A stretch of 64,000 nt of DNA from Candidatus Saccharimonadota bacterium. GTDB taxonomy: Bacteria; Patescibacteriota; Saccharimonadia; Saccharimonadales; 2-12-FULL-41-12. The notes under the pieces are model-generated. The model was not told the DNA's origin, made no database searches, and saw nothing but the letters and a program-made list of their open reading frames with translations. Below are positions 13,593 to 63,298 of this stretch, piece by piece (the stretch's first letter is position 1; every line of letters starts with the position of its first letter). The stretch is from the NCBI GenBank assembly GCA_022842995.1, contig JALHOM010000003.1:12659-76658 (forward strand), in the 5' to 3' direction. The position numbers and the translations under genes were made by a program.

Positions 13593-13696
13593 ATTTACTA
13601 TACTAAAGCATCGGCTAAATCCGGAATGTGCGATTTAAAATCCTCAGGTCAAAGATTCAAGATTGGACACTTTTACGGTATAATTACGTTTATTAA

Positions 13697-13870
13697 TGGG
13701 GATTGGCCAAGTGGTAAGGCACATGGTTTTGGTCCTGGCATTCGGGTGAGAACCTCCAGTGGAGGTTTGCAAGGCCGGAAACTGATTTTAAGCTATGCTT
13801 AAAGTAAGTTGAGGCGGGGCCGAGACTCGGCTGAAGCCCGCTTCACCGAGATCGTGGCGAAGAATCAGTA
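13697..13870 (+). ncRNA. tRNA-Gln(UUG)-like 5' portion (acceptor 5' strand, D arm, anticodon arm, variable loop) fused to a ~120-nt structured extension; not a canonical tRNA
   Basis: TGGGGATTGGCCAAGTGGTAAGGCACATGGTTTTGGTCCTGGCATTCGGG is followed by hairpin AACCTCC-agt-GGAGGTT (13751-13767) and further stems. It lacks the T arm and the acceptor 3' strand. TATAAT at 13679-13684 lies 12 nt upstream. The 3' end is uncertain. Confidence 0.5.
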
Positions 13871-13920
13871 AATCAAGATTCGAACCCCCTGCACTTTTAC
13901 GTTATAATTACGATCATTAA

Positions 13921-14055
13921 TGGGGATTGGCCAAGTGGTAAGGCACATGGTTTTGGTCCATGCATTCGGGGTGAAGATTACCTGTGGTAATCTGCAAGGG
14001 AGTCAACTCTTGCAAACTGGTTTTGCAAAGATGTTGCGACGGGGTTGCCGAAGGT
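13921..14055 (+). ncRNA. second tRNA-Gln(UUG)-like 5' portion fused to a homologous but diverged structured extension
   Basis: The first 39 nt are identical to the 13697 copy (46 of the first 49; differences only at 40, 42 and 43). The anticodon stem is intact (CATGG/CCATG). Then hairpin AGATTACC-tgt-GGTAATCT (13975-13993) sits between the same flanks (GGGTGA ... TGCAAGG) as copy 1. TATAAT at 13903-13908. The 3' end is uncertain. Confidence 0.5.
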
Positions 14056-14080
14056 GACTCGAATCCCAAAATTAACATTT

Positions 14081-14194
14081 CATTTTATAACTCTTGGCTC
14101 ATCAGTGGGATGTGGCCAAGTGGTAAGGCACCAGGTTTTGGTCCTGGCATTCGGGGGTTCGAATCCCTCCATCCCAGCCAAGAGTTATAAAATG
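14081..14194. repeat. perfect 19-bp inverted repeat bracketing the intact tRNA-Gln
   Basis: cattttataactcttggct (14081-14099) is the exact reverse complement of agccaagagttataaaatg (14176-14194). The right arm includes the tRNA 3'-terminal AGCCA. Confidence 0.9.
14106..14180 (+). tRNA. tRNA-Gln (anticodon UUG), CCA encoded
   Basis: Manual cloverleaf: TGGGATG/CATCCCA acceptor, GCCAAGTGGTAAGGC D arm, CCAGG-TTTTGGT-CCTGG anticodon arm, CATTC variable loop, GGGGG-TTCGAAT-CCCTC T arm, then GCCA. Close to E. coli tRNA-Gln. Confidence 0.95.
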
Positions 14195-14213
14195 AATCCC
14201 TCATCCCCAGCCA
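14194..14213 (+). other. orphan tRNA-Gln 3' fragment (part of T loop, T-stem 3' strand, acceptor 3' strand, GCCA)
   Basis: gaatccctcATCCCCAgcca compared with the tRNA 3' end gaatccctcCATCCCAgcca. Its acceptor strand ATCCCCA complements TGGGGAT of the two upstream 5' portions, not the intact gene. Confidence 0.75.
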
Positions 14214-14263
14214 AATGCGAGAGTTAATAATCATATCCGACCAACTAAGAAAATCTCAGTACT

Positions 14264-14692
14264 ATGTCACGAAAATTAGATGCTAAAATCCGAGATTGGT
14301 TACCCCATATCTTTATTTGCTACTTTGAATATGAAAGTTTAAACACTCTAGAAATAGTCAAACACACTGGCGGCGTCCTACGAATCCTTGGTGATGCGCA
14401 AACCCAAATTAATGAAATCAACGATGTACTTAATCACTTAGAAGAAAATAATCTATTGAAGTCATCGAGCACAGAAAGAGCGCATTACTTTGGGATAGAC
14501 CTCGAATCGGTAACCTATAAGGTGCTACCAGACTTCATAAAACTCGCCGACGACGTCAGAAATGCCCCACAATCATCTAAAGATGACATCGTTGTAAACT
14601 ATACCGAAAATAACGTGACCTACAATTTTAATATAACGTTTGCAATTGAGAAATTAGCTGAGATTAAGGCAGGATTATTTAATTTTTTGTAG
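14264..14692 (+). CDS. hypothetical protein (142 aa)
   Basis: ORF followed by a clean terminator. No recognised domain. Confidence 0.5.
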   Translation: MSRKLDAKIRDWLPHIFICYFEYESLNTLEIVKHTGGVLRILGDAQTQINEINDVLNHLEENNLLKSSSTERAHYFGIDLESVTYKVLPDFIKLADDVRNAPQSSKDDIVVNYTENNVTYNFNITFAIEKLAEIKAGLFNFL

Positions 14693-14733
14693 CGTCAGAC
14701 CTTCAACACCAGCCACGAGATTTCCAATAGAAA

Positions 14734-14764
14734 AAGACCGTATTGCTATGAAACGGTCTTTTTC
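14734..14764 (+). terminator. rho-independent terminator (A-run/T-run flanked, potentially bidirectional)
   Basis: AAGACCGT-attgctatgaa-ACGGTCTT followed by TTTC; preceded by AAAAA. Confidence 0.7.
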
Positions 14765-14865
14765 TTACGTGAATGCTCGCTAAAAAAATTGTTGGCTCGA
14801 AACTACTAGGTATTTCCAGATCAAGCAAAGTAGACAGATACCCGCATACTGAACTGACCCTAGTC

Positions 14866-15108
14866 TTACAAACCTAATCTGCTAGTTATATCTTCGACTG
14901 CAGTTTGGCCTTGTTCAGTTAAAGAAGTTGCGATCTCGGCTACTCCATCATTAGCAGAAGTAAGTGCTTCAGTTGCGCCGCCTGCAACATCCTGTAATTC
15001 TTGCACTCCAGAGGCTTCACCTAGACCACCGGCAATGTCTCCGATTGATCCCTGTGCTGCATCTGAAGCTCCACTAATTAGGTTTTGTATCGCATCAAAT
15101 AATCCCAT
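14866..15108 (-). CDS. small acidic Ala/Gly-rich protein (80 aa)
   Basis: The ORF sits immediately downstream of the regulator gene (10-nt gap). Low-complexity helical repeats (GASDAAQGSIGDIAGGLGEASG...). Confidence 0.45.
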   Translation of the reverse strand: MGLFDAIQNLISGASDAAQGSIGDIAGGLGEASGVQELQDVAGGATEALTSANDGVAEIATSLTEQGQTAVEDITSRLGL

Positions 15109-15118
15109 ACTATTCTCC

Positions 15119-15424
15119 TTACTTATTAATTACTAAACGCTCAATATTCCTTATTAGGGGCCTGAAATCCTCTGACCTATCGGTAACAAAATAGCGATTC
15201 TCGATACCGCACTCACGGCAGTCTACTAATCCCTCCATTTTAAGAAGCGTTAATTTTTTTGATAGGGTTACAGCATTAATGTCCGTCATCCTTTTAAGCT
15301 CATTGAACGATTTTTCGCCAAAGGTCATCAGTTCGTAAAGAATTAGCACATTACTAGAATCTCCAATGATCTTGGCGATACTTTTAGTTTTAGCAATCTG
15401 TTCTTGACTGTAGATTTTACGCAC
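15119..15424 (-). CDS. winged-helix transcriptional regulator (ArsR/HxlR-like), GTG start
   Basis: 101 aa. ILYELMTFGEKSFNELKRMTDINAVTLSKKLTLLKMEGLV is a helix-turn-helix plus wing pattern. Confidence 0.7.
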   Translation of the reverse strand: MRKIYSQEQIAKTKSIAKIIGDSSNVLILYELMTFGEKSFNELKRMTDINAVTLSKKLTLLKMEGLVDCRECGIENRYFVTDRSEDFRPLIRNIERLVINK

Positions 15425-15462
15425 TAGTTTACTTTGTTTACTAGTTAATAATACTTACTAGT
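15423..15462. promoter_or_regulatory. three palindromic ACTAGT hexamers at exact 17-nt spacing; candidate operator of the adjacent regulator
   Basis: ACTAGT at 15423, 15440 and 15457. The first overlaps the GTG start codon. Confidence 0.4.
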
Positions 15463-15859
15463 ATAGCAACCAAGTGTCGTCTTGCAAAGAACGAACAAGG
15501 GAGGCGCCGATATAATTAACAAAAACAGGTCATGGAAGATACGCGATACCTACAAAATTGATTTCAAGGAAAAGTGCGTATACGAATATTAAGCTAGCGT
15601 ACGAGCGAGTTCTGAAACACAAGAACCGGGGTTACCTGTCTTCATTTTACGCATTAAAAGGTAATTAAACTCATGGCGCTCATTAAACAGTCCTAAGCTA
15701 AAAAGCTCGAGCCAAAAATAAGGCGATAGGATAACCCGGTTCAAATCCCTCTCCGCTAACTAGCGGACCCAGCCGCCACTCTAAACCCTTCCAAACGTTA
15801 GCTACGAGCGGATTTTTGCTACTTATAAAGTTCGAACGTCAGATAAGATTTCAATAACC

Positions 15860-16810: not shown

Positions 16811-16856
16811 GGCTTGAGTATAACAAACCTTTCTTACTAATCCCCACTCGTTATCA

Positions 16857-17095
16857 GGAATTGGAAATTGGGAATTAGGAATTAGCAGACATGAGTTATG
16901 AGATATGAGTTAAGAGACAAGAGTAGCTCCTAGCTACTAGATGCTAGCGGCTAGCTACAAACTCCTACTCCTTTCGCCGCAGGCGAATCTTAACTCATGA
17001 CTCTTAACTCATGACTCTTTTTAGTCTTTAGTCTTTAAGCTTTAAGCTTTAAGCTTTCAGCTTTTTTCTAATTCCTAATTCCCAATTTCCAAATA
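16857..17095. repeat. ~240-bp composite palindromic element built from short tandem-repeat modules
   Basis: Perfect 25-nt terminal inverted repeats ttggaaattgggaattaggaattag (16861-16885) / ctaattcctaattcccaatttccaa (17068-17092). Inner modules are (atgagtta)n, (tagctac)n and (ttaagct)n, with complementary modules on the other arm. Confidence 0.85.
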
Positions 17096-40546: not shown

Positions 40547-41164
40547 CTAGCGTCGTCCGCGGTTACTGCGGTCATCGTCGTCACCGTCGTCATCTTTGTC
40601 GTCTGAACTGTCGTTTTCACGAGAGCTTTCAATTTCAGTCCGCATCACCGTACCGTCTTTAGTGCTCACGTCTACTCGACTTCCATCAGCAAAACGGACG
40701 CTAATTACTTTTACGCCATGCTCGATCTCTACTTCGGTCTTTCTGATAGTCGATCCACTGTGCTGGCGTAGTGCGATTTCTTTAGCCTGCTGGACGGTTA
40801 TCTCGCCGGTCGAAGTACTGTTAGAAGAATTACTTGAAGAGTTTGAGCTAGAACTAGGAGTTCCCGTGGTAGCACTTCCTTCAGCAATGTCGCTGGCACT
40901 TGGGTTATCATCTACTTTCGGCAATGTTTGCGGGCCGCTCGCTACCGTATTTGCCCTATCGCTACGGCTATCTACTCCCTGTTGAGAGCTGTTATTTCGG
41001 TCATTTCGGCGATCTTCACGCCTGTCTTCACGACGATCTTCGCGTCGAACATCGTTTGCCTTATTGACATCATCAGCACCCTGACGTGCCATAGCCACAC
41101 TTGGCACCAAAACCAGTCCAGCAACCGCCGGGATAAGTAGTAATTTCTTGCTAACTAATTTCAT
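40547..41164 (-). CDS. secreted PepSY-domain protein with basic/acidic low-complexity regions
   Basis: Signal peptide; REDRREDRREDRRNDR repeat; C-terminal PepSY-like ITVQQAKEIALRQHSGSTIRKTEVEIEHGVKVISVRFADGSRVDV. Confidence 0.7.
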   Translation of the reverse strand: MKLVSKKLLLIPAVAGLVLVPSVAMARQGADDVNKANDVRREDRREDRREDRRNDRNNSSQQGVDSRSDRANTVASGPQTLPKVDDNPSASDIAEGSATTGTPSSSSNSSSNSSNSTSTGEITVQQAKEIALRQHSGSTIRKTEVEIEHGVKVISVRFADGSRVDVSTKDGTVMRTEIESSRENDSSDDKDDDGDDDDRSNRGRR

Positions 41165-41289
41165 TTGATTTTTCCCTCCTAAAATATACGGGATTAATTG
41201 CTATTACCTGACATATAACGCAGGTACCACCCAAAACGTTACAAAAATCTCCCCAATGGCAAATCAAAAACCCCTTAACTACCACAACC

Positions 41290-41334
41290 ATTTTGCAAGG
41301 ATAAACCCTGCAACAGGGTTTATCCTTGCAAAAT
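41290..41334. repeat. perfect 21-bp-stem palindrome
   Basis: attttgcaaggataaaccctg-caa-cagggtttatccttgcaaaat. Confidence 0.9.
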
Positions 41335-41431
41335 GACGCCTTAAAAACATGTAAATAAATTACGCGATCGTGGATTTTATTTACATAGAGGTCGCACCTC
41401 TGTAGTTGGGCGGACAAACAGAGGTTACCGC

Positions 41432-41479
41432 CATGTAAATGTTGTACGCGATCGCGTACAACATTTACATGTTTTTTTT
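41432..41479 (+). terminator. perfect 40-nt palindrome followed by T8 (terminator-like, no annotated upstream + gene)
   Basis: catgtaaatgttgtacgcga|tcgcgtacaacatttacatg, then tttttttt (41472-41479). Confidence 0.6.
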
Positions 41480-41808
41480 GGCGGTTAATTGACGAGGGTA
41501 ATCGGGTACTATAAGGCGACCTAACAGGGGTGCAGCAAGAAAATCGGGGTATTTTGTATTGGAATCTGGGGATTATTTGTAACAATTTGTTATGTATCTC
41601 GTTATATATAAAGTAAGCCCTGTTCTCGATTCTCGGTAATCGAACTTCATCACCGAAATAGAACTATCGGATTTGATAGACTAGAGTTATGAGTTATGGC
41701 GTGCCAGCAATCGGCCAAATGCCGAACTATCGTCAAGCCGGGAGCACCTCAACAGCACGTAAGGGAGCATGGGTTATAAGAAAAAGACCCAAAAAACACA
41801 ACTAAGAT

Positions 41809-43125: not shown

Positions 43126-43809
43126 ATGAGCCTCTCGAAAAAGCCTTCAGATTTACATAGAGAATCCCAAAAAATCATAAAGTTAACCGATCGACTTTGG
43201 AGTACGATGGAAATCCCCAGGTCCAGGCCACCGCAACAAGCACTTAGAATCTCTAGAGCCTTGGGTGTAGCATGTATTCTCACTATAGCCCTCCTGCAAG
43301 AGCACGACTTATTAATACCAGAACGGCATTGGCGCACGACTAACACCTTTGGAAATATTCATGAGCTGCGTTCAACCCTGCCAGTTCCACAATTGATCAG
43401 CTTCACCGGAAAATCACGCATGTTCTTAAGCGAAGCCGAGGAAGAACAAAACAGAGTGATAGCACTTGAGCTAGAGCACACTGAAAATCCCGATAGCAAG
43501 CCCGTGACACTAACCACGATTTTACCTCGTCCAATTTATGCAGATGAGCTTCTCAAGATTCCCGCACCTTCAAAATGGGAAGAAGGGTTACTTAGAACAG
43601 TTGCGTCTAACCTTGATCGGCCTCCGACAAACCCGGATGGATGGCCAAATGATCCTGATTATTCAGACCAAATCCAAATCGTCGCACCTTTTACGCAGGC
43701 CTCTCTTGACGATCCGACCCAAATCATCGACTACCTCAGAATTAGCGCCCGCCTAACTCACACTTTCGCGCAGTCGGCATTTGCCAATCTTCCCAACTCA
43801 ACAGCCTAA
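43126..43809 (+). CDS. orphan array member 3 (227 aa)
   Basis: ORF. Promoter TTGACA (43088) - 17 nt - TATTGT (43111). Architecture motifs SQKIIKLTDRL, ALRISRALGVACILTIALL, ERHWRTT. Confidence 0.6.
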   Translation: MSLSKKPSDLHRESQKIIKLTDRLWSTMEIPRSRPPQQALRISRALGVACILTIALLQEHDLLIPERHWRTTNTFGNIHELRSTLPVPQLISFTGKSRMFLSEAEEEQNRVIALELEHTENPDSKPVTLTTILPRPIYADELLKIPAPSKWEEGLLRTVASNLDRPPTNPDGWPNDPDYSDQIQIVAPFTQASLDDPTQIIDYLRISARLTHTFAQSAFANLPNSTA

Positions 43810-43934
43810 ACTCTCCTGTATATTAACCACAAAAACTCTTTTTAATACCATTCGATATACAATAAGACTTTCGTGCTATTATTGCATATAGATTGTTCTG
43901 TAATTTTTTGAGACAACTCACAAAGGCTTTACGT

Positions 43935-44639
43935 ATGAACAGTAAGAGAACTTTACCCAGAGGCTTCCTCTACAAAGGCCGTAAGGCTAGTCCTGAAAAG
44001 CTGACTCAATGTATCAGCCAACTACAAGAATGCCCAACTCCAAGGCTAAAATACTCTGCACCCACATTCAGCGCCCTGACAACACTTGGCGAAGTTTTTT
44101 ATCTAGCAACAAGCATAATTGGTTATAGATATATAGACGACATTGCGCCAAACTGGCAATATGACCAGCGTCGCACCCAGCTTGCTTACATACCCCCAAC
44201 ATGCGACTCTACAGAAGAGCATGCGTTTTCGAAAACCGCTATTCTACCGGCTACTCACGGCCCGAGCGGAGTACTTTCGCTTTTAGTCGACGCCCCTGAC
44301 TACTCTAACGCAAACAGAACAGTCACCACGGTGTATGGCGTTGCCATCCCTTCAGTTGTCAAATCTATCAAATCACCTTTTCAACTAAGCAAAATAAACG
44401 CAATCGGACTTATGACAACATCTTCAACAAAAATTCCGACATCGACAACAGAAGAGCCCGATTCAAACCAAGCTTTCCACATCGAATCACATATTAAACC
44501 TTACGGCCGCAGCCTTCTTTTACCAAATGGCAGTCTCGGGGACACCGGCTTCGCTTCGCTCATGGCGACCTACTTTACAGAGACAAGGACTGCGGTACTG
44601 TCACTGGCTCATTTAGCACTCAAAACACAAGAAATATAG
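43935..44639 (+). CDS. orphan array member 4 (234 aa from ATG; the track start 43893 is TTG)
   Basis: ORF. FSALTTLGEVFYLATSIIG, APNWQYD, and C-terminal helix GFASLMATYFTETRTAVLSLAHLAL. Confidence 0.55.
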   Translation: MNSKRTLPRGFLYKGRKASPEKLTQCISQLQECPTPRLKYSAPTFSALTTLGEVFYLATSIIGYRYIDDIAPNWQYDQRRTQLAYIPPTCDSTEEHAFSKTAILPATHGPSGVLSLLVDAPDYSNANRTVTTVYGVAIPSVVKSIKSPFQLSKINAIGLMTTSSTKIPTSTTEEPDSNQAFHIESHIKPYGRSLLLPNGSLGDTGFASLMATYFTETRTAVLSLAHLALKTQEI

Positions 44640-44698
44640 TCAAAAATATAAGTTCATCAATTAATGACTGAAACAGCGGAATCAACCGGCGCAGAACC

Positions 44699-44938
44699 TT
44701 GGTTTCGGCTTGGCTAAAAACTATCAACGAGGCAAGGCATCTTCTGCCTGAACCTATCACAGAAAAACCTATATGGATACAATCCGCGTGCAATAACCGG
44801 AATTATACCTACGTCAAAGACCTTCGGGCTCGGTATGATTTATATACTAGATTGTTTGGCATCTATGACGTCCTCGCATTGGAACAAGGCGCAAAACTAG
44901 ACAAGACTTCGGGGAACTACTTTATACCAAGAAATTAG
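44699..44938 (+). CDS. short array ORF (79 aa, TTG start) - possibly truncated or frameshifted member
   Basis: No ATG in frame. An ATG at 44664 opens an 18-codon ORF in another frame that ends inside this one. Confidence 0.3.
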   Translation: MVSAWLKTINEARHLLPEPITEKPIWIQSACNNRNYTYVKDLRARYDLYTRLFGIYDVLALEQGAKLDKTSGNYFIPRN

Positions 44939-45017
44939 CCATCCTTGGTAAAAATAAATATACAGCTCGGTAATACTGCTTTTGTTTAAGCCTTACCCGG
45001 CATTATATATTTGAATT

Positions 45018-45668
45018 ATGACAATGACTCCTTCCGGAAAGCATGACCGTGGCAACGGCTTATCAGATCCACACATCATACTTAAGCAAACAAGAGAAAT
45101 AATTCAGATATCACCAAGCGATGATCCTTTAGAGATCCTCGGTCTCGCAACTGAGCTCGGAAGATTAACCACTCTAACGCTTAAAAATACCTTTGTACAA
45201 ATTAAAAAAATAGGTCTACCTCCGGATTGGGAACCTTATTGCATGGCCGGTGTACAAGGTTTCAGCTTTTCGCGCACTCCTGAGAATGATTTAAATCCAT
45301 TAATTGAAGGCAGGTGTGCTCTTGGCATAAACACGCTTGAGCATTTACCGACATTGGTCGAACCGGGAAATCATATTGACTTTGCCCGCCCCAGGCAACA
45401 AATTATTTTTCCAAGCCGTAAAACCCAATTAGCTCTAGCCGGTATGGATCCCAAGGACTGGCTTGATTCAAAAATCAAAACTCAAATGCTTGCAGGCGAA
45501 GAAATAACTGGCGAGATAACGCCCTTCGTACTGCCAACTTTTAAAGGGGTGCACTCAGTCGATAGTCGTCGTTTCGCCGAACTGCACGCCTATCTCACAA
45601 CTGCTCGACGTATTGCAGATCAAGTTTTAGTTTCGGCTTTACAACAATTAATTTCACGCGAGGAATAG
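45018..45668 (+). CDS. orphan array member 6 (216 aa)
   Basis: ORF. KQTREIIQI, LEILGLATELGRLTTLTL, PPDWEPY, and C-terminal helix RRFAELHAYLTTARRIADQVLVSALQQL. Confidence 0.6.
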   Translation: MTMTPSGKHDRGNGLSDPHIILKQTREIIQISPSDDPLEILGLATELGRLTTLTLKNTFVQIKKIGLPPDWEPYCMAGVQGFSFSRTPENDLNPLIEGRCALGINTLEHLPTLVEPGNHIDFARPRQQIIFPSRKTQLALAGMDPKDWLDSKIKTQMLAGEEITGEITPFVLPTFKGVHSVDSRRFAELHAYLTTARRIADQVLVSALQQLISREE

Positions 45669-45673
45669 ATTTC

Positions 45674-46420
45674 ATGACACAGCAATCACCAGAGAAGACC
45701 ATAGCCCAATCTCGAAAAGAGATCCTTGAGCACCTCAAGGTTTTGCGTGGGCAAAAAGTTGCCGAAGATATCCACTCCGACCAAGCTAGAGTAAATCTCC
45801 AAACGCTGGGGCAAGTAGCCAATGGGAGCCTGGTTTTGCTCGCAACGGCACACGCCTCCGGACAAGCCAAACACTGGTCTTTTGACGCTCCTAACGGTTA
45901 TTTCATCTATGAAAGACCTGGCGCCGTCCAGAGGAGGGGCGGAGTTACTCACTATCACCAAATGATGGTCAACAGAACATCTACAAGAGCCGTTGGTTAC
46001 ATAAAGATACTGCGAGCTGAAGTTCATGCTGGGCTTCATACACCTACTTATTTACGCTCTACTGGGGTTCCTGACCCTTCATCGCCAGCAAGTCCAGATG
46101 TAGTGCTATATAGAAGTGCTCGGCACGACTTATATTACGACTCAGACAAAATTGCAGATTCCCTATTACCTCACTTAAGAACCGAGGAAGAAATATATGC
46201 AGCCGAAGCAGAAACGGCTACTGCCATGCCATTTTACACTGCTCAAGAACACTCGCGCAGATTACCTGAATTCCCCGACAGACCCGACGTCCCACGCACC
46301 CCATTTGGCTTATACTACGCCGGAGCATCTCTACTGGTAGCAAATTTCGCGCAACTCGTCCTTGATACGACACCTAATCCCAGCCTGCCTCCACATTCCC
46401 ACATTAAAACAATCATCTGA
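45674..46420 (+). CDS. orphan array member 7 (248 aa)
   Basis: Starts 5 nt after member 6. SRKEILEHLKVL, LQTLGQVANGSLVLLATA, AKHWSFD. Confidence 0.6.
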   Translation: MTQQSPEKTIAQSRKEILEHLKVLRGQKVAEDIHSDQARVNLQTLGQVANGSLVLLATAHASGQAKHWSFDAPNGYFIYERPGAVQRRGGVTHYHQMMVNRTSTRAVGYIKILRAEVHAGLHTPTYLRSTGVPDPSSPASPDVVLYRSARHDLYYDSDKIADSLLPHLRTEEEIYAAEAETATAMPFYTAQEHSRRLPEFPDRPDVPRTPFGLYYAGASLLVANFAQLVLDTTPNPSLPPHSHIKTII

Positions 46421-46464
46421 CTAATTTTCTGTACTAACCAGTAATACACCGAGGTGAAGTTCAC

Positions 46465-47184
46465 ATGCTAGACGGACTACAAGGCATAGATCCAGATTCG
46501 TACCCAAACTCGCATAGAGCACTCAAAGCGACAGTCCTAGAAGAAGTCGAATCGATTATAGATCTCCTTGGGCGTTCCCCAAACCCAGCCTTTACACTAG
46601 AAGTTGCATCGGTCCTTGGAGGATTTGCTTTTAGCGCAGCAACCATGGCCCGCCGCCACGTCAGAGACATTGACGGCTCCGATCCAGAGTGGCACACCGT
46701 CGAAAGCTATTCTGACCCGGACGAGCCATTTACTCTATCGAACGAAGCTACGTTTATTTCTGTGATTTACAACCCTGTGCCTTCAGAATCACCAGACAAC
46801 GAACCTAACCGATATCGTCATTTCATTCGGATTCCAAAAGATTATGGAGTTGTCACGCTGTACGCATCGGACTACGACCCCCGCCTAGGGCTAATGTCGC
46901 TCAGCGCGTCCATTCCGTGCATCGAACCGCACACAGATCTAAATCGAGCCTTAATTCAGTACACTATGGATGGTAAGATAAGAGCCGCATCTACCGACGA
47001 GCCAGAATTACCGCAAATAGATTTGCCCATCCCTACTTCCTGGACCCAATTAGACCAGAATCCTAACAGCGACGAACTTGCCGAGCACAACCGGTACAGA
47101 GATAAACTTATTGTGCTCACAAAAAAAGTAGTTCTATACACCTTCGAATTCTTGGACGAGAAGTATTTCGTTTTAGATGCTTGA
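46465..47184 (+). CDS. orphan array member 8 (239 aa)
   Basis: GAGGTGA RBS. KATVLEEVESIIDLL, FTLEVASVLGGFAFSAATMA, DPEWHTV. Confidence 0.6.
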   Translation: MLDGLQGIDPDSYPNSHRALKATVLEEVESIIDLLGRSPNPAFTLEVASVLGGFAFSAATMARRHVRDIDGSDPEWHTVESYSDPDEPFTLSNEATFISVIYNPVPSESPDNEPNRYRHFIRIPKDYGVVTLYASDYDPRLGLMSLSASIPCIEPHTDLNRALIQYTMDGKIRAASTDEPELPQIDLPIPTSWTQLDQNPNSDELAEHNRYRDKLIVLTKKVVLYTFEFLDEKYFVLDA

Positions 47185-47303
47185 AAATCGACTACACTCA
47201 GCAAAATTAAAGTAATAACTTTTTAAAAGGCCATCTCGGTTTTGTTTAGTCTGTCTGGAGTTGCTATAACAGTAGTTAAGGAGCACCTAACAGCCGAACT
47301 AAT

Positions 47304-47981
47304 ATGACCAAAACAACAGAGCAGAAACGAATTGCAAGAGAAACAATAGGGCAACATCTCGACCGCGTCCATATACTTACTGAGAATGGCGGTTTCGAGG
47401 CTTCAACTACTTTAGGAAAAGATACTTTAGAGCGACTCAAACTAGCTAGTAAGGCCATCGCTACGCTTCTTAGAGCTCCTCAACTTCCTTCAGAAAGAGT
47501 TTTAATTTCACCTGATCAAATTACACACTTTGGACAGGATTCCCTACGCCTATTCTATCTTTCTCAATCAGGATTGCATTTGGGAAAAAGCAGTGGCCCA
47601 CAGTTTAGTCTCTGCCCATCTGGAGCAATACGATTTCGGTCAGTCGAGCATGCGCTTTCACCACCATTAAATGGCACTTTGCCGCCACAGAGCGCAGTCA
47701 TCCCTCCGGCTAAAATATTGCAGCAATGTATCGACGGCGAGAACATTTACCTAGGAACCCACGCAGTCTATTATTATATGCCCCGCCAAGGACACCCGAG
47801 AGCCACACTAGAAGCTCGACCCTCTCTGAGAACCGAATCAGAAAGAAACTTAAGATACCTATCCGCCGCATCTGTCACCGCCCAAACCTTCCATGAAGTA
47901 TATACTCGCCTGCTTGAACACCCCGATTTCCCTTACGATACGTTCGTTGACCTCACCCCTCCCAAACCCATAAAAGAATAA
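47304..47981 (+). CDS. orphan array member 9 (225 aa)
   Basis: ORF. RIARETIGQHL, TLERLKLASKAIATLL, and C-terminal helix LRYLSAASVTAQTFHEVYTRLLEH. Lacks the Trp. Confidence 0.55.
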   Translation: MTKTTEQKRIARETIGQHLDRVHILTENGGFEASTTLGKDTLERLKLASKAIATLLRAPQLPSERVLISPDQITHFGQDSLRLFYLSQSGLHLGKSSGPQFSLCPSGAIRFRSVEHALSPPLNGTLPPQSAVIPPAKILQQCIDGENIYLGTHAVYYYMPRQGHPRATLEARPSLRTESERNLRYLSAASVTAQTFHEVYTRLLEHPDFPYDTFVDLTPPKPIKE

Positions 47982-47989
47982 AGATTAAA

Positions 47990-48098
47990 GAGAGCTACGA
48001 GTCTTAAGCTATGAGCTTTGAGTCATAAGCTATGAGTTATTGTAAAAGGGCTATGAGTCGTAAGATATGAGTTATGAGTTAAGAACTTTGAGAATCTA
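47990..48098. repeat. short-tandem-repeat block of the (a)tgag(t/c)(t/c)a(t/a) type
   Basis: aagctatgagctttgagtcataagctatgagttat...ctatgagtcgtaagatatgagttatgagttaagaac. Same word family as 16890-16915, 41684-41698, 51153-51186 and 52150-52180. Confidence 0.8.
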
Positions 48099-48108
48099 GT
48101 CAGCTGGG

Positions 48109-48148
48109 GCCGGCTTTCGCTGGCCAGCGAAGGATAACTGATGAAAAA
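48109..48148. repeat. 40-nt direct repeat copy 1 (contains palindrome TTCGCTGG/CCAGCGAA)
   Basis: gccggctttcgctggccagcgaaggataactgatgaaaaa, identical to 48898-48937. Confidence 0.95.
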
Positions 48149-48239
48149 CCAAATATATTAGAATACACTTGACATTTCTTGTCAAGACATGCTACTATTG
48201 CTATATCACCATGACGGGCTACCCTAAAGTGAACGTGCT

Positions 48240-48809
48240 TTAGGTTATGCCCGTCTCTTTTTGTCTCTTGTCTTTTTCCAATTTCTTTTTATTAACGGAT
48301 ACATAATCCATATAATCAACAAATTTTGACAATAAATTAGAGTAACGATGCTTGTTCGGAACAACTAGTGCTCCTAGTTTTTGAACACCTTCAAGATGTT
48401 CACATAAACTCAAAAAATCACCATCGCCAGATACAATAACTGCTTTATCGTAATTCTCAATTTCTTTAGCTGAAGCGTATAAAACCAAGTCAGTGTCTAC
48501 ATTGCCTTTGACGCGTATCCTTCCATCTGTATCTTTGAAGGATGTTGTGGGTTTTAGTACAACTATATAGCCTATTCGTTGAAGATAGGCGTACAAGCTT
48601 TCCCTTCCTGGCATATTACCTATAAATAAGAAGGCGGTTTCTACTTTGTGCTTATCTTTTAAGTACTGCCTGAATTTTTTAAAATCAAGTTCCCAGCCAG
48701 AATAAATTTTCTTACCTTTATGAATTACGTCATTGCTCACACCCAGATTCAGATTCTGACTGTCAATAAAAGCATATACAACTGGCCGTTTTTTATCTTT
48801 CACCATCAA
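48240..48809 (-). CDS. NYN-domain (LabA/DUF88-like, PIN-fold) putative ribonuclease
   Basis: 189 aa. VYAFIDSQNL...AFLFIG...NVDTDLVLYA...AVIVSGDGDF matches the NYN acidic-residue pattern. Confidence 0.8.
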   Translation of the reverse strand: MMVKDKKRPVVYAFIDSQNLNLGVSNDVIHKGKKIYSGWELDFKKFRQYLKDKHKVETAFLFIGNMPGRESLYAYLQRIGYIVVLKPTTSFKDTDGRIRVKGNVDTDLVLYASAKEIENYDKAVIVSGDGDFLSLCEHLEGVQKLGALVVPNKHRYSNLLSKFVDYMDYVSVNKKKLEKDKRQKETGIT

Positions 48810-48897
48810 ATAAATTATACCATATTTTGTTTGCGTTAATGGTTAATTTATTGGCCAATACGTTTTAGCCCAAATAAGATCCTCCGCTCCCGCGCGA

Positions 48898-48937
48898 GCC
48901 GGCTTTCGCTGGCCAGCGAAGGATAACTGATGAAAAA
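48898..48937. repeat. 40-nt direct repeat copy 2
   Basis: Identical to 48109-48148; the two copies bracket the NYN gene. Confidence 0.95.
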
Positions 48938-49235
48938 TAGGTAGGTATGCAATATAATTTTCGAGGACTGTTCGAATCCGCCGTGCAAGGCGGATAGTCC
49001 CGGCTTCATGAAAACTGATTAAAAATATAAGACCAGGCTAGTCTATGTTCGGCTCGAACTGTCTGAAACCCCAAACGGTGAGTTTTCGAGACGACTGATT
49101 AGTTTGGTCTTATATTTTTAGTAACGTTTTTATGATTGCCGGTCATTTTTTTGGGCTACCTTTTTGCTGATGCAAAAAAGGTAGTAATTTGGTTCTTTAA
49201 AAAGAACATTCTTAAAAAATTTCTAATTTTTCTTT

Positions 49236-49266
49236 CCAAAAGAAAAACCCCAGTTTCCTGGGGTCT
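49236..49266 (-). terminator. rho-independent terminator for the 49299-49772 gene
   Basis: On the minus strand, ACCCCAG-gaaa-CTGGGGT is followed by TTTTTCTTTT. Confidence 0.7.
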
Positions 49267-49298
49267 CTAATTCCTTCCGCTGGCTAGCGGATCACAAA

Positions 49299-50655: not shown

Positions 50656-52629
50656 TTATTGGATTTTATAGAGTGCTATGGAATCGTCTTGATAGCTCTC
50701 ACTAAAGCTCGGTCGGCCGTCAAAGACGTCGTATTTCTGCCAATCGAACTCTTTGACCACTACTACGTATTCTATGCTATCTTCTTTCAGGACGTCCGCC
50801 AAGTTTTGCCGGAAAGCAAGATCGGGCAATACATCCTTCTCAAAGCGCATTACCGCCGAATCTTGAACGGACTCATTGAGCGCGCCCAGCTCGGGATTAC
50901 TACTCATCACCGCCGGATATCCCATAAACCTTGGCGCAGGATTCGCCACGACACCACCCGTAAACTCCATTGGCATATACAAATGCCAGGGCAAATACAA
51001 AACCTTGCCACCACGATATTCACGGTCCAATACCGACTCTACCTGATACCACCCTCTCGGGTAATCGCCAGTTTTTGGCCAGGCGGTTGGGTCGAGGAAG
51101 ATGCCCGGTACCAAAAATATTGGGACAAGTAAAAATACTGCCCAATATTTTTGTGAGTCATGAGTCATGAGCCATGAGTCATGAGTTTTTTGTTTTCCGT
51201 AATCTGTTTTCCGTAATCTTGTATTACTGCCCACCGATATCTTTTTGCTGCTACTTAATTTTCTACTGACTACGGATAACTGATGACTGATAACTGACTT
51301 ATTGCTTTGAGCAAATGCAAGCAAGCCGCAGCCCGCGAAGTAGACGTACGCCAATGCAATAAGTCCGGCGAATTTCTGAGGTTCACGGTAGCCACTAAAC
51401 AGCGGGATATGGTCGACCAAAAACTGGTTTAGTAGGCCGACTATTGGAGCCTTTGTACCTGCCGCGAGAACGAGTCCAGCCGCCAACAAACTAGCGAAGA
51501 TTTTGAAGTAAAATCGCATGTGTTTATAGGACCAAAATGCCCCCTTAATAACCAAGTAAAGCAGCACCGCAAGTGGGAGCCACCACCACCAATGCGTATC
51601 TTGAGGCAAGAGGTACAAATTGCCGTTGTCCGCCCAAAAACCCTGCAATCGTAATAGGTTGCCGAATATTCCTATCCCGTCGCCAGTTGTTGCGTAAGCG
51701 GTTAGATCATCGACGCCAAATGAGCTGATCGTGTCCGCTGTTTGCCCTTTGCCGAGGATGAGGGGCAGGAGCCAATAGGAAGATAGCAGGAGCCATGAGA
51801 TTTGAGTCATGAGATAAGATTTAGCTGCGCGCTTGACAGTATCTTTATTAGCACGCTCGTCAATAGCCCACCACATAAAGACTATGAACGTCATGATGAC
51901 GGAGATGCCGAGGAAGTGAATGGACAATACGCCGGTTAAGGCCAGCAGTCCGCCGAGCGTTAGCCATTGTTTTCTGGTGGGGTTTTTGAGCAGTTTTAGG
52001 GTAGCTAGGAGGATGAATGGGAGGAGGGCGTAGCCCATTAAAACGGCCCATTGACCTGTCATGAAGCGAGTATAGACGAAATTATTTAGCAGATATAAGG
52101 CTCCAGCAAATATCGGGACTATCGCAATGGGCCGTGTAGCTTCATTTGAGACATGAGTCATGAGATATGAGTCATGAGCTTTTTGCTGCTTATCTTTTAT
52201 CTTTAATCTTTTATCTTTTATCTCGAGTCTTTCTTCTTTTGTCTTTCCTCTTTGAACTTTTGCATGCACTCTTTCATCTGCGGTCTTTGTTTTTTTCTGC
52301 TTGTCCTCCGGAGCCTTGGCGAAGGAGGATGAACCGTTAACTGTATACTCGATCATTTTTTTGGCACCAATAAAAATGGTCGCTAGTATTGCTAAGAGCA
52401 AAAGCCTCTGCACCACCCAGGCCGGCATAATCTTGGACAAAAGATACAGTAAATACTCGAACCAAAAAATAGACGTAACCGCCGTCGGTGCCGGCATATC
52501 CGGGACAAAAACCATATCCGGCACAAAGATATACCCCGGAACAAAAGATAACTGCATCACTAAAAACACCAGAGATATCAAAGCAACTTTTGCCCATCGT
52601 GATTGCAGGAAGTTACTTCGTTTTAGCAT
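50656..52629 (-). CDS. polytopic membrane protein (657 aa), likely envelope-glycan assembly; carries in-frame tandem-repeat insertions
   Basis: About 12 TM segments plus a C-terminal soluble domain. Hydrophilic loops are encoded by repeat DNA at 51150-51305, 51790-51830 and 52148-52300. Confidence 0.65.
   Translation of the reverse strand: MLKRSNFLQSRWAKVALISLVFLVMQLSFVPGYIFVPDMVFVPDMPAPTAVTSIFWFEYLLYLLSKIMPAWVVQRLLLLAILATIFIGAKKMIEYTVNGSSSFAKAPEDKQKKTKTADERVHAKVQRGKTKEERLEIKDKRLKIKDKQQKAHDSYLMTHVSNEATRPIAIVPIFAGALYLLNNFVYTRFMTGQWAVLMGYALLPFILLATLKLLKNPTRKQWLTLGGLLALTGVLSIHFLGISVIMTFIVFMWWAIDERANKDTVKRAAKSYLMTQISWLLLSSYWLLPLILGKGQTADTISSFGVDDLTAYATTGDGIGIFGNLLRLQGFWADNGNLYLLPQDTHWWWWLPLAVLLYLVIKGAFWSYKHMRFYFKIFASLLAAGLVLAAGTKAPIVGLLNQFLVDHIPLFSGYREPQKFAGLIALAYVYFAGCGLLAFAQSNKSVISHQLSVVSRKLSSSKKISVGSNTRLRKTDYGKQKTHDSWLMTHDSQKYWAVFLLVPIFLVPGIFLDPTAWPKTGDYPRGWYQVESVLDREYRGGKVLYLPWHLYMPMEFTGGVVANPAPRFMGYPAVMSSNPELGALNESVQDSAVMRFEKDVLPDLAFRQNLADVLKEDSIEYVVVVKEFDWQKYDVFDGRPSFSESYQDDSIALYKIQ
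51150..51305. repeat. in-frame modular short-tandem-repeat block inside CDS
   Basis: (gtcatga)n at 51153-51186, (ttttccgtaatctg)x2 at 51192-51219, (ctga[tc]aa/ctgac)n at 51263-51301. Translated as ...SHQLSVVSRKLSS...RLRKTDYGKQKTHDSWLMTHDSQ. Confidence 0.85.
52148..52300. repeat. second in-frame modular short-tandem-repeat block inside CDS
   Basis: gagacatgagtcatgagatatgagtcatgagc, then (cttttatct)n, then (tctttc)n. Translated as KTKEERLEIKDKRLKIKDKQQKAHDSYLMTHVS. Confidence 0.85.
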
Positions 52630-62635: not shown

Positions 62636-62982
62636 TTTTTCTACTCTACCTCCATGCTGGGATTCGCACTCTCCAAGTCAATACCTCCTTGGAAAAAAAT
62701 TTCATTAATCTTGCTTATCCCCACATTAAATCCGCATATACCGAGATAAATCCCGATAACGCATACTCTCAAATGCCAAACCCCAATAATTCATTAGATA
62801 AGGTCTATCAATTATTATAGCCGGTGTTACCGCTCACGACCAGCCCTCCAACAGATAAGCCACCCTAAATCCGTTACGTCTCCCCCTAGCACCCTCAACT
62901 CAACCAATCATCAACCAGTCATCCTGCCCCAACCCACCCAACTCTACTCTTCCACGAACCTCACCCCCCTTGCGCAAGCTTT

Positions 62983-63012
62983 TTGCGCAGGGTCTGACCC
63001 TGCGCACTCTGC
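62983..63012. repeat. 30-nt direct repeat copy 1 containing a 21-nt palindrome
   Basis: ttGCGCAGGGTCtGACCCTGCGCactctgc, identical to 63166-63195. Both copies are followed ~30 nt later by [tc]tagagcactca. Confidence 0.9.
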
Positions 63013-63165
63013 GCACTTCACCGCCAAGGCCGAAGTTATTAGAGCACTCAAAACAAAAGTACGGCAAGACAATAATAGCGCTTTCATGCGCACTTCTCTT
63101 GCCAGCGTGTAAGAGCAAACCCCTGATCGCTAATTTCGAATCACTAATTCACCCATCTCCTCTTG

Positions 63166-63195
63166 TTGCGCAGGGTCTGACCCTGCGCACTCTGC
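63166..63195. repeat. 30-nt direct repeat copy 2
   Basis: Identical to 62983-63012. Confidence 0.9.
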
Positions 63196-63298
63196 AATCG
63201 AGGGCCAACTCACTAGAGCACTCATTGGTGAGTACAACAAGTCAGCACCACTTTCCTCGCTCACTCCCTGCTAAAAAGTCGGGGCGGGTACCTTATTG

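Follow-up and report, generated by a model that had tools for sequence, protein, structure and literature searches.

How did a single gene come to lie between two identical 40-bp sequences? This question is raised by a 64,000-nt stretch of contig JALHOM010000003.1 from a Candidatus Saccharimonadota bacterium (the whole stretch analysed, hereafter the window), in which a minus-strand gene for an NYN/LabA-like protein is bracketed by a perfect, hairpin-bearing direct repeat. An earlier note on this DNA had described the locus as resembling a cassette with recombination sites. The geometry was found to be as described and a cassette bounded by recombination sites is plausible, whereas positive comparative or enzymatic support for a cassette or recombination system was not obtained, and the locus appears to be a one-off, with nothing to show that it belongs to a wider cassette system. 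The reading that we tentatively favour is that the NYN unit of 789 bp is a recent insertion, made by recombination at a 40-bp hairpin-bearing site, that could be lost again via its repeats.

The two copies of the repeat were found to be identical at every position (0 mismatches) and to lie in the same orientation, in agreement with the earlier note. No third copy was detected in the window with up to 3 mismatches allowed, and 100 dinucleotide-preserving shuffles of the window gave 0 matches to the 40-mer. Identity between the copies ended abruptly at both edges, with unrelated sequences adjoining on the outer and inner sides, such that the repeat is exactly 40 bp in length. By a whole-window scan for repeats of at least 22 nt, this pair was found to be the longest perfect non-tandem direct repeat; the other direct repeats detected were heptamer arrays, a tRNA-Gln-like triplication, a 34-nt pair near 63 kb and the hairpins of a transposase gene, and the remainder consisted of three imperfect pairs of 25-27 nt with 78-81% identity. 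A degenerate third copy considered at 48997-49024 was rejected, as its alignment score of 26 fell inside the range of 21-33 obtained for shuffled sequence. The pair is real and far beyond chance. A common dispersed repeat, which the earlier note had named as a finding that would speak against its proposal, was not what emerged: only two copies were present in the window and no exact match was recovered from three public collections (the 40-mer in GTDB, searched with one genome per species, and its 22-nt core in IMG/VR and the JGI metagenomes).

The repeat was also traced in independent assemblies. Three Logan contigs, from runs SRR28154522, SRR28154524 and SRR28154525, were found to carry a left-flank gene (o225) identical to that of the window; the left ends of these contigs differed, and all three stopped at 48138, which is k-1 = 30 nt into the left copy. 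This common stop is indicative of a branch in the k=31 graph, where the next k-mer has two predecessors, and such a branch implies at least two left contexts of the 40-mer in those samples; the repeat is not the product of one assembly alone. Exact-protein look-ups for the NYN protein (its three start variants plus P0001, a 100% identical protein on an 85.6-kb NCBI contig), o157 and o257 returned nothing on record, and only o225 was recovered, on these three short contigs. We consider the chance slim that an assembly effect explains the arrangement, i.e., that the 789-bp unit is in truth arrayed in tandem, or exists as a free circle beside an empty chromosome, and that the resulting graph loop was traversed once. 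At k up to ~40 all three structures yield the same graph, so that the Logan k=31 contigs cannot separate them, and an intact, identical NYN product is recorded from none of the Logan contigs. However, assemblers of metagenome-assembled genomes normally finish at k of at least 55, and at such values the junction of left flank, 40-mer and interior must exist in the reads. Even if an assembly effect were at work, a 40-bp repeat shared by the chromosome and the NYN unit would be real and equally interesting.

Between the repeats lies a unique interior, of which no paralogous fragment was found elsewhere in the window. The claim that the repeats enclose only the NYN/LabA-like gene held up, as no other open reading frame (ORF) of more than 39 aa was located wholly inside; no partner (antitoxin-like) ORF was detected within the unit. 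The encoded protein scored 50.3 bits against the Pfam NYN domain PF01936 (cut-off 24.2, E=4.7e-13) and, in a 26-sequence family alignment, was found to have the invariant residues D15, D104, D106 and GDGDF (127-131). Based on this domain homology, the protein is predicted to be a ribonuclease; among solved structures the closest is 2qip, whose function is not known. The NYN family is large and slow-evolving, with thousands of matching proteins and dozens at 70-75% identity. Names attached to these homologues and to related loci place the organism among the Saccharibacteria (TM7), within the candidate phyla radiation. The position of an extended -10 element just ahead of the start codon suggests that the NYN mRNA is leaderless or near-leaderless, and a homologue in a relative (L001) has a similar layout, with TATAAT 6 nt ahead of its ATG. 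With this promoter-like element and a terminator-like hairpin of its own, the 749-bp interior is predicted to be an expression unit for a single gene, complete in itself. Read on the + strand, the hairpin bases form part of a promoter-like site, TTGACA-18-TACTAT (48169-48198), that would point antisense into NYN (consensus match only).

Table 1. Features of the NYN locus and of the related palindromes, in window coordinates.
Feature	Position	Strand	Remarks
Heptamer tandem arrays (AAAGAAT, ATGAGTY and similar)	47973-48106		Abut left repeat copy; same family as arrays at 16856-17092
Left 40-bp repeat copy	48109-48148	+	GCCGGCTTTCGCTGGCCAGCGAAGGATAACTGATGAAAAA; 91 nt past NYN stop codon; heptamer arrays adjoin on left
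Perfect 16-nt palindrome in left copy	48116-48131		TTCGCTGGCCAGCGAA; 6-bp arms and 4-nt centre
Unique interior	48149-48897		749 bp; interior plus one repeat gives the 789-bp unit
Terminator-like hairpin downstream of NYN	48168-48186	-	CTTGACAAGAAATGTCAAG; consensus match only
NYN/LabA-like gene	48240-48806	-	188 aa from ATG 48806; 189 aa from TTG 48809
Extended -10 element	48814-48822	-	TGGTATAAT; ends 7 nt before NYN ATG; putative promoter
Right 40-bp repeat copy	48898-48937	+	GCCGGCTTTCGCTGGCCAGCGAAGGATAACTGATGAAAAA; starts 92 nt upstream of NYN start codon
16-nt palindrome in right copy	48905-48920		TTCGCTGGCCAGCGAA
Highly structured right flank	48938-49295	+	z=-10; long hairpin ~49000-49140 (~140 nt), then T-run
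o157 operon terminator	49247-49264		Within right flank; followed by related palindrome at 49276-49291
Related palindrome	49276-49291		TCCGCTGGCTAGCGGA; 7 nt beyond stop codon of o157 (minus strand)
Related palindrome	15752-15767		TCCGCTAACTAGCGGA; embedded in tRNA-Gln 3'-end-like repeat (GGTTCAAATCCCTC ... CCCAGCC); closes 1.6-kb islet

Comparison with relatives revealed that the NYN gene is not a fixed feature of this position. Only two relatives (L040 and L041/L042), both distant, were found to share the flanking operon, and their o657 and o157 are ~39% identical to those of the window. In each of them, the operon o1207-o657-o257-o157 ends in a positionally conserved terminator that is followed by unrelated genes, and no NYN gene was detected within 3-8 kb after the operon. 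A closer relative (L039, with 57% identity for o657 and 79% for o257) is represented by a 3.3-kb contig that ends too early to show the site. Thus, conservation of the NYN gene at this site in all relatives, which the earlier note had listed as counting against its proposal, was not observed: the two operon-sharing relatives are without NYN there, and homologues are found elsewhere in other contexts. In oral / animal-associated Saccharibacteria the gene resides in two conserved syntenies, its context differs in the closer environmental relatives L001 and L003, and none of these NYN-neighbourhood genes occurs in the window. The presence of NYN homologues in several contexts across the Saccharibacteria indicates that the gene was relocated during evolution.

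The unit occupies a boundary, as had been claimed, with ORFs lacking Pfam matches on the left and a glycosyltransferase/DUF6541 operon on the right. The nearest ORF on the left, o225, had no homologue but itself among 5.8 billion proteins. It is the last of six consecutive + strand ORFs (43126-47981, 216-248 aa) with no Pfam matches and no detectable mutual similarity, and this set forms a lineage-specific block adjoining the NYN unit. On the right, a structured spacer of ~360 bp separates the NYN unit from the operon o157-o257-o657 (DUF6541)-o1207 and from several glycosyltransferases. Taken together, the conserved operon terminator with unrelated genes beyond it in relatives and the lineage-specific orphan flank in the window point to a variable junction. 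Flanking repeats as a general property of NYN genes were considered and rejected. Among all 35 homologue loci, exact repeats of at least 12 nt flanking NYN were found at none to a comparable degree except L033, where the signal was due to paralogous flanking genes; by Smith-Waterman comparison of upstream with downstream flanks at 26 loci, only the window, with a score of 40 versus a null maximum of 11, and L033 stood out.

Based on these results, we infer an insertion event, a crossover at the repeat and a potential for excision. By this reading, a DNA molecule carrying NYN with its own promoter and terminator-like hairpin would have recombined with the chromosome at a 40-bp site containing the 16-nt palindrome, either through a site-specific recombinase acting in trans on an attachment (att)-like site or through a Campbell-type single crossover within 40 bp of shared sequence. 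The outcome would be two perfect direct copies of the site, one on either side of the NYN unit, leaving a module that may now be likened to an integrase-less, att-flanked islet and that could be lost again through recombination between the repeats. The zero divergence between the copies argues for a recent event. A length of 40 bp fits the identity segments typical of integrase att sites, and 40-bp direct repeats 749 bp apart would permit occasional deletion of the gene. Also in support of an insertion are other integration footprints in the same genome without an integrase in cis, namely an islet at a tRNA-Gln gene and two 5' pseudo-copies of that gene.

Several observations weigh against this insertion reading. 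Neither an empty site nor a second occupied site was found, in a lineage without close relatives in any database; an empty site could not be found because the left-flank gene o225 is a complete orphan and such relatives are lacking. No tyrosine or serine recombinase was detected by Pfam among the 58 ORFs of the window, and no tRNA, tmRNA or Rfam family was identified at or beside the repeat. No phage or IMG/VR relatives were found and plasmid matches reached only ~31% identity, such that a phage or plasmid origin has no support. As the core site of a known recombinase, a 16-bp palindrome would be short. The 3' third of the 40-mer resembles the heptamer arrays of this genome, which marks the site as native and leaves the route of duplication unindicated: a 13-mer from this part (GGATAACTGATGA) recurs, with marginal significance, in a (GATAACT)n array at 51274. 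This resemblance and the position of the left copy against the arrays suggest that the duplicated sequence is native intergenic material, i.e., a duplicated target and not imported DNA. Base composition adds a further point. NYN has the lowest GC (0.351) and the lowest GC3 (0.314) of the 58 window ORFs; its homologues were found to be 0.02-0.15 lower in GC than their surroundings at 23 of the 23 relatives' loci tested, including syntenic ones. The low GC of NYN belongs to the whole family and not to the copy in the window; it was therefore rejected as a mark of recent transfer, and composition is uninformative on this question. This family-wide trait was seen in every lineage examined (loci L001-L035), even where the gene sits in conserved synteny.

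A tRNA-like remnant at 48965-49003 (GTTCGAATCC), beyond the right copy, was also considered and found no support, as its 10-mer is expected 0.11 times by chance and no Rfam or ARAGORN match was obtained.

An alternative that deserves attention, even if we judge it unlikely, is that NYN is resident and never moved. By this explanation, a short regulatory or structural module (the hairpin with a promoter -35 or Shine-Dalgarno-like tail) was copied across the gene by local template switching or gene conversion and was perhaps kept identical by function, e.g., as paired operators or insulators. The genome makes many short-range duplications of hairpin segments, including the 34-nt pair 183 bp apart (62979/63162), palindromes at 41343/41427 and the tRNA-like triplication. 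The right copy of the 40-mer, moreover, supplies the -35 of a promoter-like site on the + strand, in which the last bases of the copy (ATGAAA, 48930-48935) are followed by a 17-nt spacer and TATAAT (48953-48958). By contrast, we know of no standard mechanism that would copy exactly 40 bp over 749 bp without duplicating the intervening sequence, and local duplication elsewhere in the window has produced partial tandem units whose identity decays, as opposed to isolated perfect copies. A role as terminator also finds no support: the 40-mer folds with no unusual stability (z=-1.5 and -0.6 versus shuffles) and there is no T-run, which together indicate that it is not a terminator. The lack of NYN at this position in the syntenic relatives likewise speaks against a gene that never moved.

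The local duplicates cited above have features of their own. The 34-nt pair (62979-63224) is 97% identical and bears the palindrome TGCGCAGGGTCTGACCCTGCGCA; a weaker similarity continues for ~45 nt past the repeats, which marks the pair as part of a partial tandem duplication in intergenic DNA. The palindromes near 41 kb form a cluster (41289-41476) with a 22-bp stem at 41289-41335, a 40-nt perfect palindrome at 41432-41471 centred on GCGATCGC, and a degenerate copy at 41348-41386. This cluster overlaps the 5' part of a minus-strand ORF (41151-41585) and is upstream of a gene for an extracytoplasmic function (ECF)-type sigma factor. In the right flank of the NYN unit, the segment at 48938-49160, in which the long hairpin is preceded by the promoter-like site at 48930-48958, may hold a small RNA of ~190 nt (48965-49152) or an inverted repeat resembling a miniature inverted-repeat transposable element (MITE); no Rfam family was detected in this flank.

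The palindrome within the repeat is shared more widely in the window than the repeat itself. Each copy of the 40-mer contains one perfect 16-nt palindrome, and the two related palindromes that had been reported, one beside o157 and one at the edge of the tRNA islet, are both present. The motif YCGCT-N4-AGCGR, which was defined after the sites had been seen, had 4 matches in the window versus 0.17 expected. As a family (TYCGCT-N4-AGCGRA) the palindromes occur at three loci and differ by symmetric, compensatory changes that keep the stem intact. This pattern is as expected of a dimer-binding site or an RNA stem and is to that extent in favour of the resident, regulatory module described above. 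The core motif was absent from 37 fetched loci of other Saccharibacteria and candidate phyla radiation (CPR) lineages, and none of the fetched NYN homologue loci carried it. Restriction-site palindromes (GGCC, GCCGGC, TGGCCA) showed no sign of being avoided.

Two explanations were built on this family. In one, which we regard as a long shot, TYCGCT-N4-AGCGRA would be the core site of an unrecognised recombination system specific to this lineage of Saccharibacteria, which would move promoter-bearing single-gene modules such as NYN and to which the palindrome bordering the tRNA-Gln islet would also be due, i.e., a minimal CPR gene-cassette system distinct from integrons, Xer modules and REP/RAYT. 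The presence of a family member exactly at the edge of another apparent insertion provides circumstantial backing for a recombination role. In the other, which we find very improbable, the role would be at the level of RNA: if NYN were also read through from the upstream operon, its transcript would have the same stem-loop on both sides, and an RNase, possibly NYN itself, could act on these stem-loops in processing or autoregulation. By analogy, Regnase-1 cleaves a stem-loop in the 3' untranslated region of its own mRNA. An RNA-level role is in keeping with the PIN-like nuclease fold assigned to NYN by domain, with the related stem-loop in the 3' untranslated region of the neighbouring o157 and with the preservation of the stem through changes among family members. 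It is difficult to reconcile with the position of the upstream copy, which falls beyond the transcript expected from the proximal extended -10 element, with a hairpin stability not above that of shuffles and with the lack of the motif at every NYN homologue locus, and it leaves the 40-nt identity beyond the stem unexplained.

Local repeats with hairpins, and scars of integration, abound in this genome. Upstream of the tRNA-Gln gene (14106-14180), its promoter and 5' part are present as two pseudo-copies, forming three tandem copies (13668-13746, 13892-13970 and 14077-14155) of which the second and third are 94% and 70% identical to the first. Only the third copy is complete; in the first two, ~85-135 nt of structured sequence stands at the place of the T-loop and is followed by TCGAA(T/C)CCC, with no acceptor 3' strand. 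These pseudo-copies could be the remains of serial integrations, or something more unusual. Downstream of the tRNA-Gln gene is an islet of 1.6 kb (14181-15776) that encodes an HxlR-type helix-turn-helix protein and small ORFs, with no integrase. The islet terminates with a repeated tRNA 3' end (GGTTCAAATCCCTC...CCCAGCC), where the palindrome TCCGCTAACTAGCGGA takes the place of CAT.

Heptanucleotide tandem arrays are also abundant (16856-17092, 41684-41698, 47973-48106, 51154-51297 and 52147-52253), with units that include ATGAGTY, AGGAATT, CTTTAAG, GATAACT and TTATCTT; the block at 16856-17092 is a long imperfect palindrome of mirrored heptamer arrays. They are reminiscent of the short tandemly repeated repetitive (STRR) sequences of cyanobacteria, and no report of such arrays was found for Saccharibacteria. 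A search of the literature yielded nothing relevant on NYN in Saccharibacteria, attC in Patescibacteria or heptanucleotide repeats. Within the operon to the right of the NYN unit, the DUF6541-like membrane protein o657 (50656-52629) has two lineage-specific in-frame insertions (residues ~105-165 and 470-525) relative to the shorter aligned homologues of 552-565 aa. At the DNA level these insertions are heptamer arrays, e.g., HDSWLMTHDS from (TGAGTCA)n, and the 57%-identical relative P0123 has insertions at the same two positions.

Single-strand transposition dependent on hairpins, either of the IS200/IS605 type, as in palindrome-associated transposable elements (PATEs), or of the type known for repetitive extragenic palindromic (REP) sequences and REP-associated tyrosine transposases (RAYTs), was weighed as a further origin of the locus and is, in our estimate, rather unlikely. 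The hairpins would in this case be the ends of a non-autonomous element with NYN as passenger, or a 40-bp REP-like hairpin would have inserted twice locally, with a Y1 (HUH) transposase provided in trans. A RAYT-like Y1 transposase is indeed encoded in the window, on the minus strand at 1488-2138 (motif NHFHLL), 46 kb from the NYN locus; this ORF scored above the cut-off for Pfam PF01797 (32.5 bits) and below that for NCBIfam REP_Tyr_transpos (E=1.3e-10). It is located between two copies of a 23-nt palindrome (TGTACAAGGACTGTCCTTGTACA), each within a longer perfect palindrome (1433-1467 and 2144-2182), and has the same gene-between-hairpins geometry as NYN. The ends of IS200/IS605 elements bear similar hairpins in the same orientation. 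RAYT genes are known to be flanked by REPs (PMC2817692). However, the hairpin of the Y1 gene (TGTACAAGGAC/GTCCTTGTACA) is unrelated to the palindrome of the 40-mer, which also lacks a GT(A/G)G head. REPs are usually present in more than 100 copies per genome (PMC2817692), whereas the 40-mer has only two copies in 64 kb and no exact public match. REP pairs around rayt genes and in REP doublets forming hairpins (REPINs) are inverted, whereas the pair at NYN is direct. In addition, identity between the 40-mers runs 7 nt and 17 nt into non-palindromic flanks, an extension that transposase end hairpins do not need. Aside from the NYN locus, RAYT-like genes in CPR bacteria are possibly worth a look.

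Recent insertion at the 40-bp site remains the reading that we tentatively favour. Little is known of how gene flux takes place in the small genomes of CPR bacteria and Saccharibacteria, and a clean single-gene module between perfect 40-bp repeats would offer a small, tractable example of the gain and loss of individual genes. A new system of the cassette type would be indicated should the palindrome prove to act as a recombination core. At present the evidence comes from one locus in one lineage, which for now serves as a concrete target for checks at the level of reads.

Comparison of the locus with known mobile-element systems distinguished several types. A transposon with terminal inverted repeats (TIRs) was rejected, based on an inverted-repeat score at the inner ends of 6.5 versus a null mean of 5.9 and a duplication of 40 bp, far above the usual 2-15 bp. 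REP/REPIN elements resemble the 40-mer as short extragenic palindromes and, through the RAYT-like gene of the window, in the layout of a gene between two hairpins; they were rejected on low copy number (two in 64 kb), direct orientation and the absence of the head (GTAG/GTGG) from the 40-mer (by comparison with PMC2817692). PATEs resemble the locus in that similar same-orientation hairpins are present near both ends, there are no TIRs and a passenger gene is possible. They differ in that the perfect 40-bp identity at NYN includes non-hairpin flanks, that the element is single-copy in the window, such that a target tetranucleotide is undefinable from one copy, and that the hairpin of the Y1 gene present in the window is not that of the 40-mer.

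Integron cassettes and clusters of attC sites lacking integron-integrases (CALINs) share with the locus a single ORF between direct copies of a palindrome-bearing repeat and a size of ~0.8 kb. By contrast, attC sites are imperfect inverted repeats of 57-141 bp (R''-L''/L'-R'), and the NYN repeat is 40 bp with a perfect 16-nt palindrome. Integron cores (RYYYAAC/GTTRRRY) were absent from both strands of the 40-mer and from the 30 nt around it, no IntI was detected by Pfam among the 58 ORFs of the window, the two copies alone form no array, and NYN has a predicted promoter of its own. With attC cores, IntI and an array looked for and not found, an integron cassette was rejected. Xer-dependent modules, i.e., integrative mobile elements exploiting Xer (IMEX) and pdif modules, are similar in that small gene modules between short recombination sites are moved by host recombinases encoded elsewhere. 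They differ in that the 40-mer, as read by eye, is without the 11-6-11 XerC/XerD architecture, and that the sites of pdif modules are inverted.

The locus is closest in its working to att-flanked islets that lost their integrase. Such cis-mobilizable elements (CIMEs) are defined as having kept attL and attR while the genes for integration and transfer were lost (PMC6323972). At 789 bp and one gene, the NYN unit is smaller than CIMEs, which are usually several kb; the 40-mer is not at a tRNA or tmRNA, whereas the usual target is the 3' end of a tRNA, tmRNA or other conserved gene; and with no integrase in the window, a cognate integrase, integrative and conjugative element (ICE) or integrative mobilizable element (IME) is not known, nor has excision or an empty site been observed. 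Similar to CIMEs, however, direct repeats that match at 40 of 40 bp and resemble attL and attR bound a cargo with no integration or transfer genes inside, and the same genome has a second islet bounded by a repeat of a tRNA 3' end. A small att-flanked insertion is a plausible description of the NYN unit.

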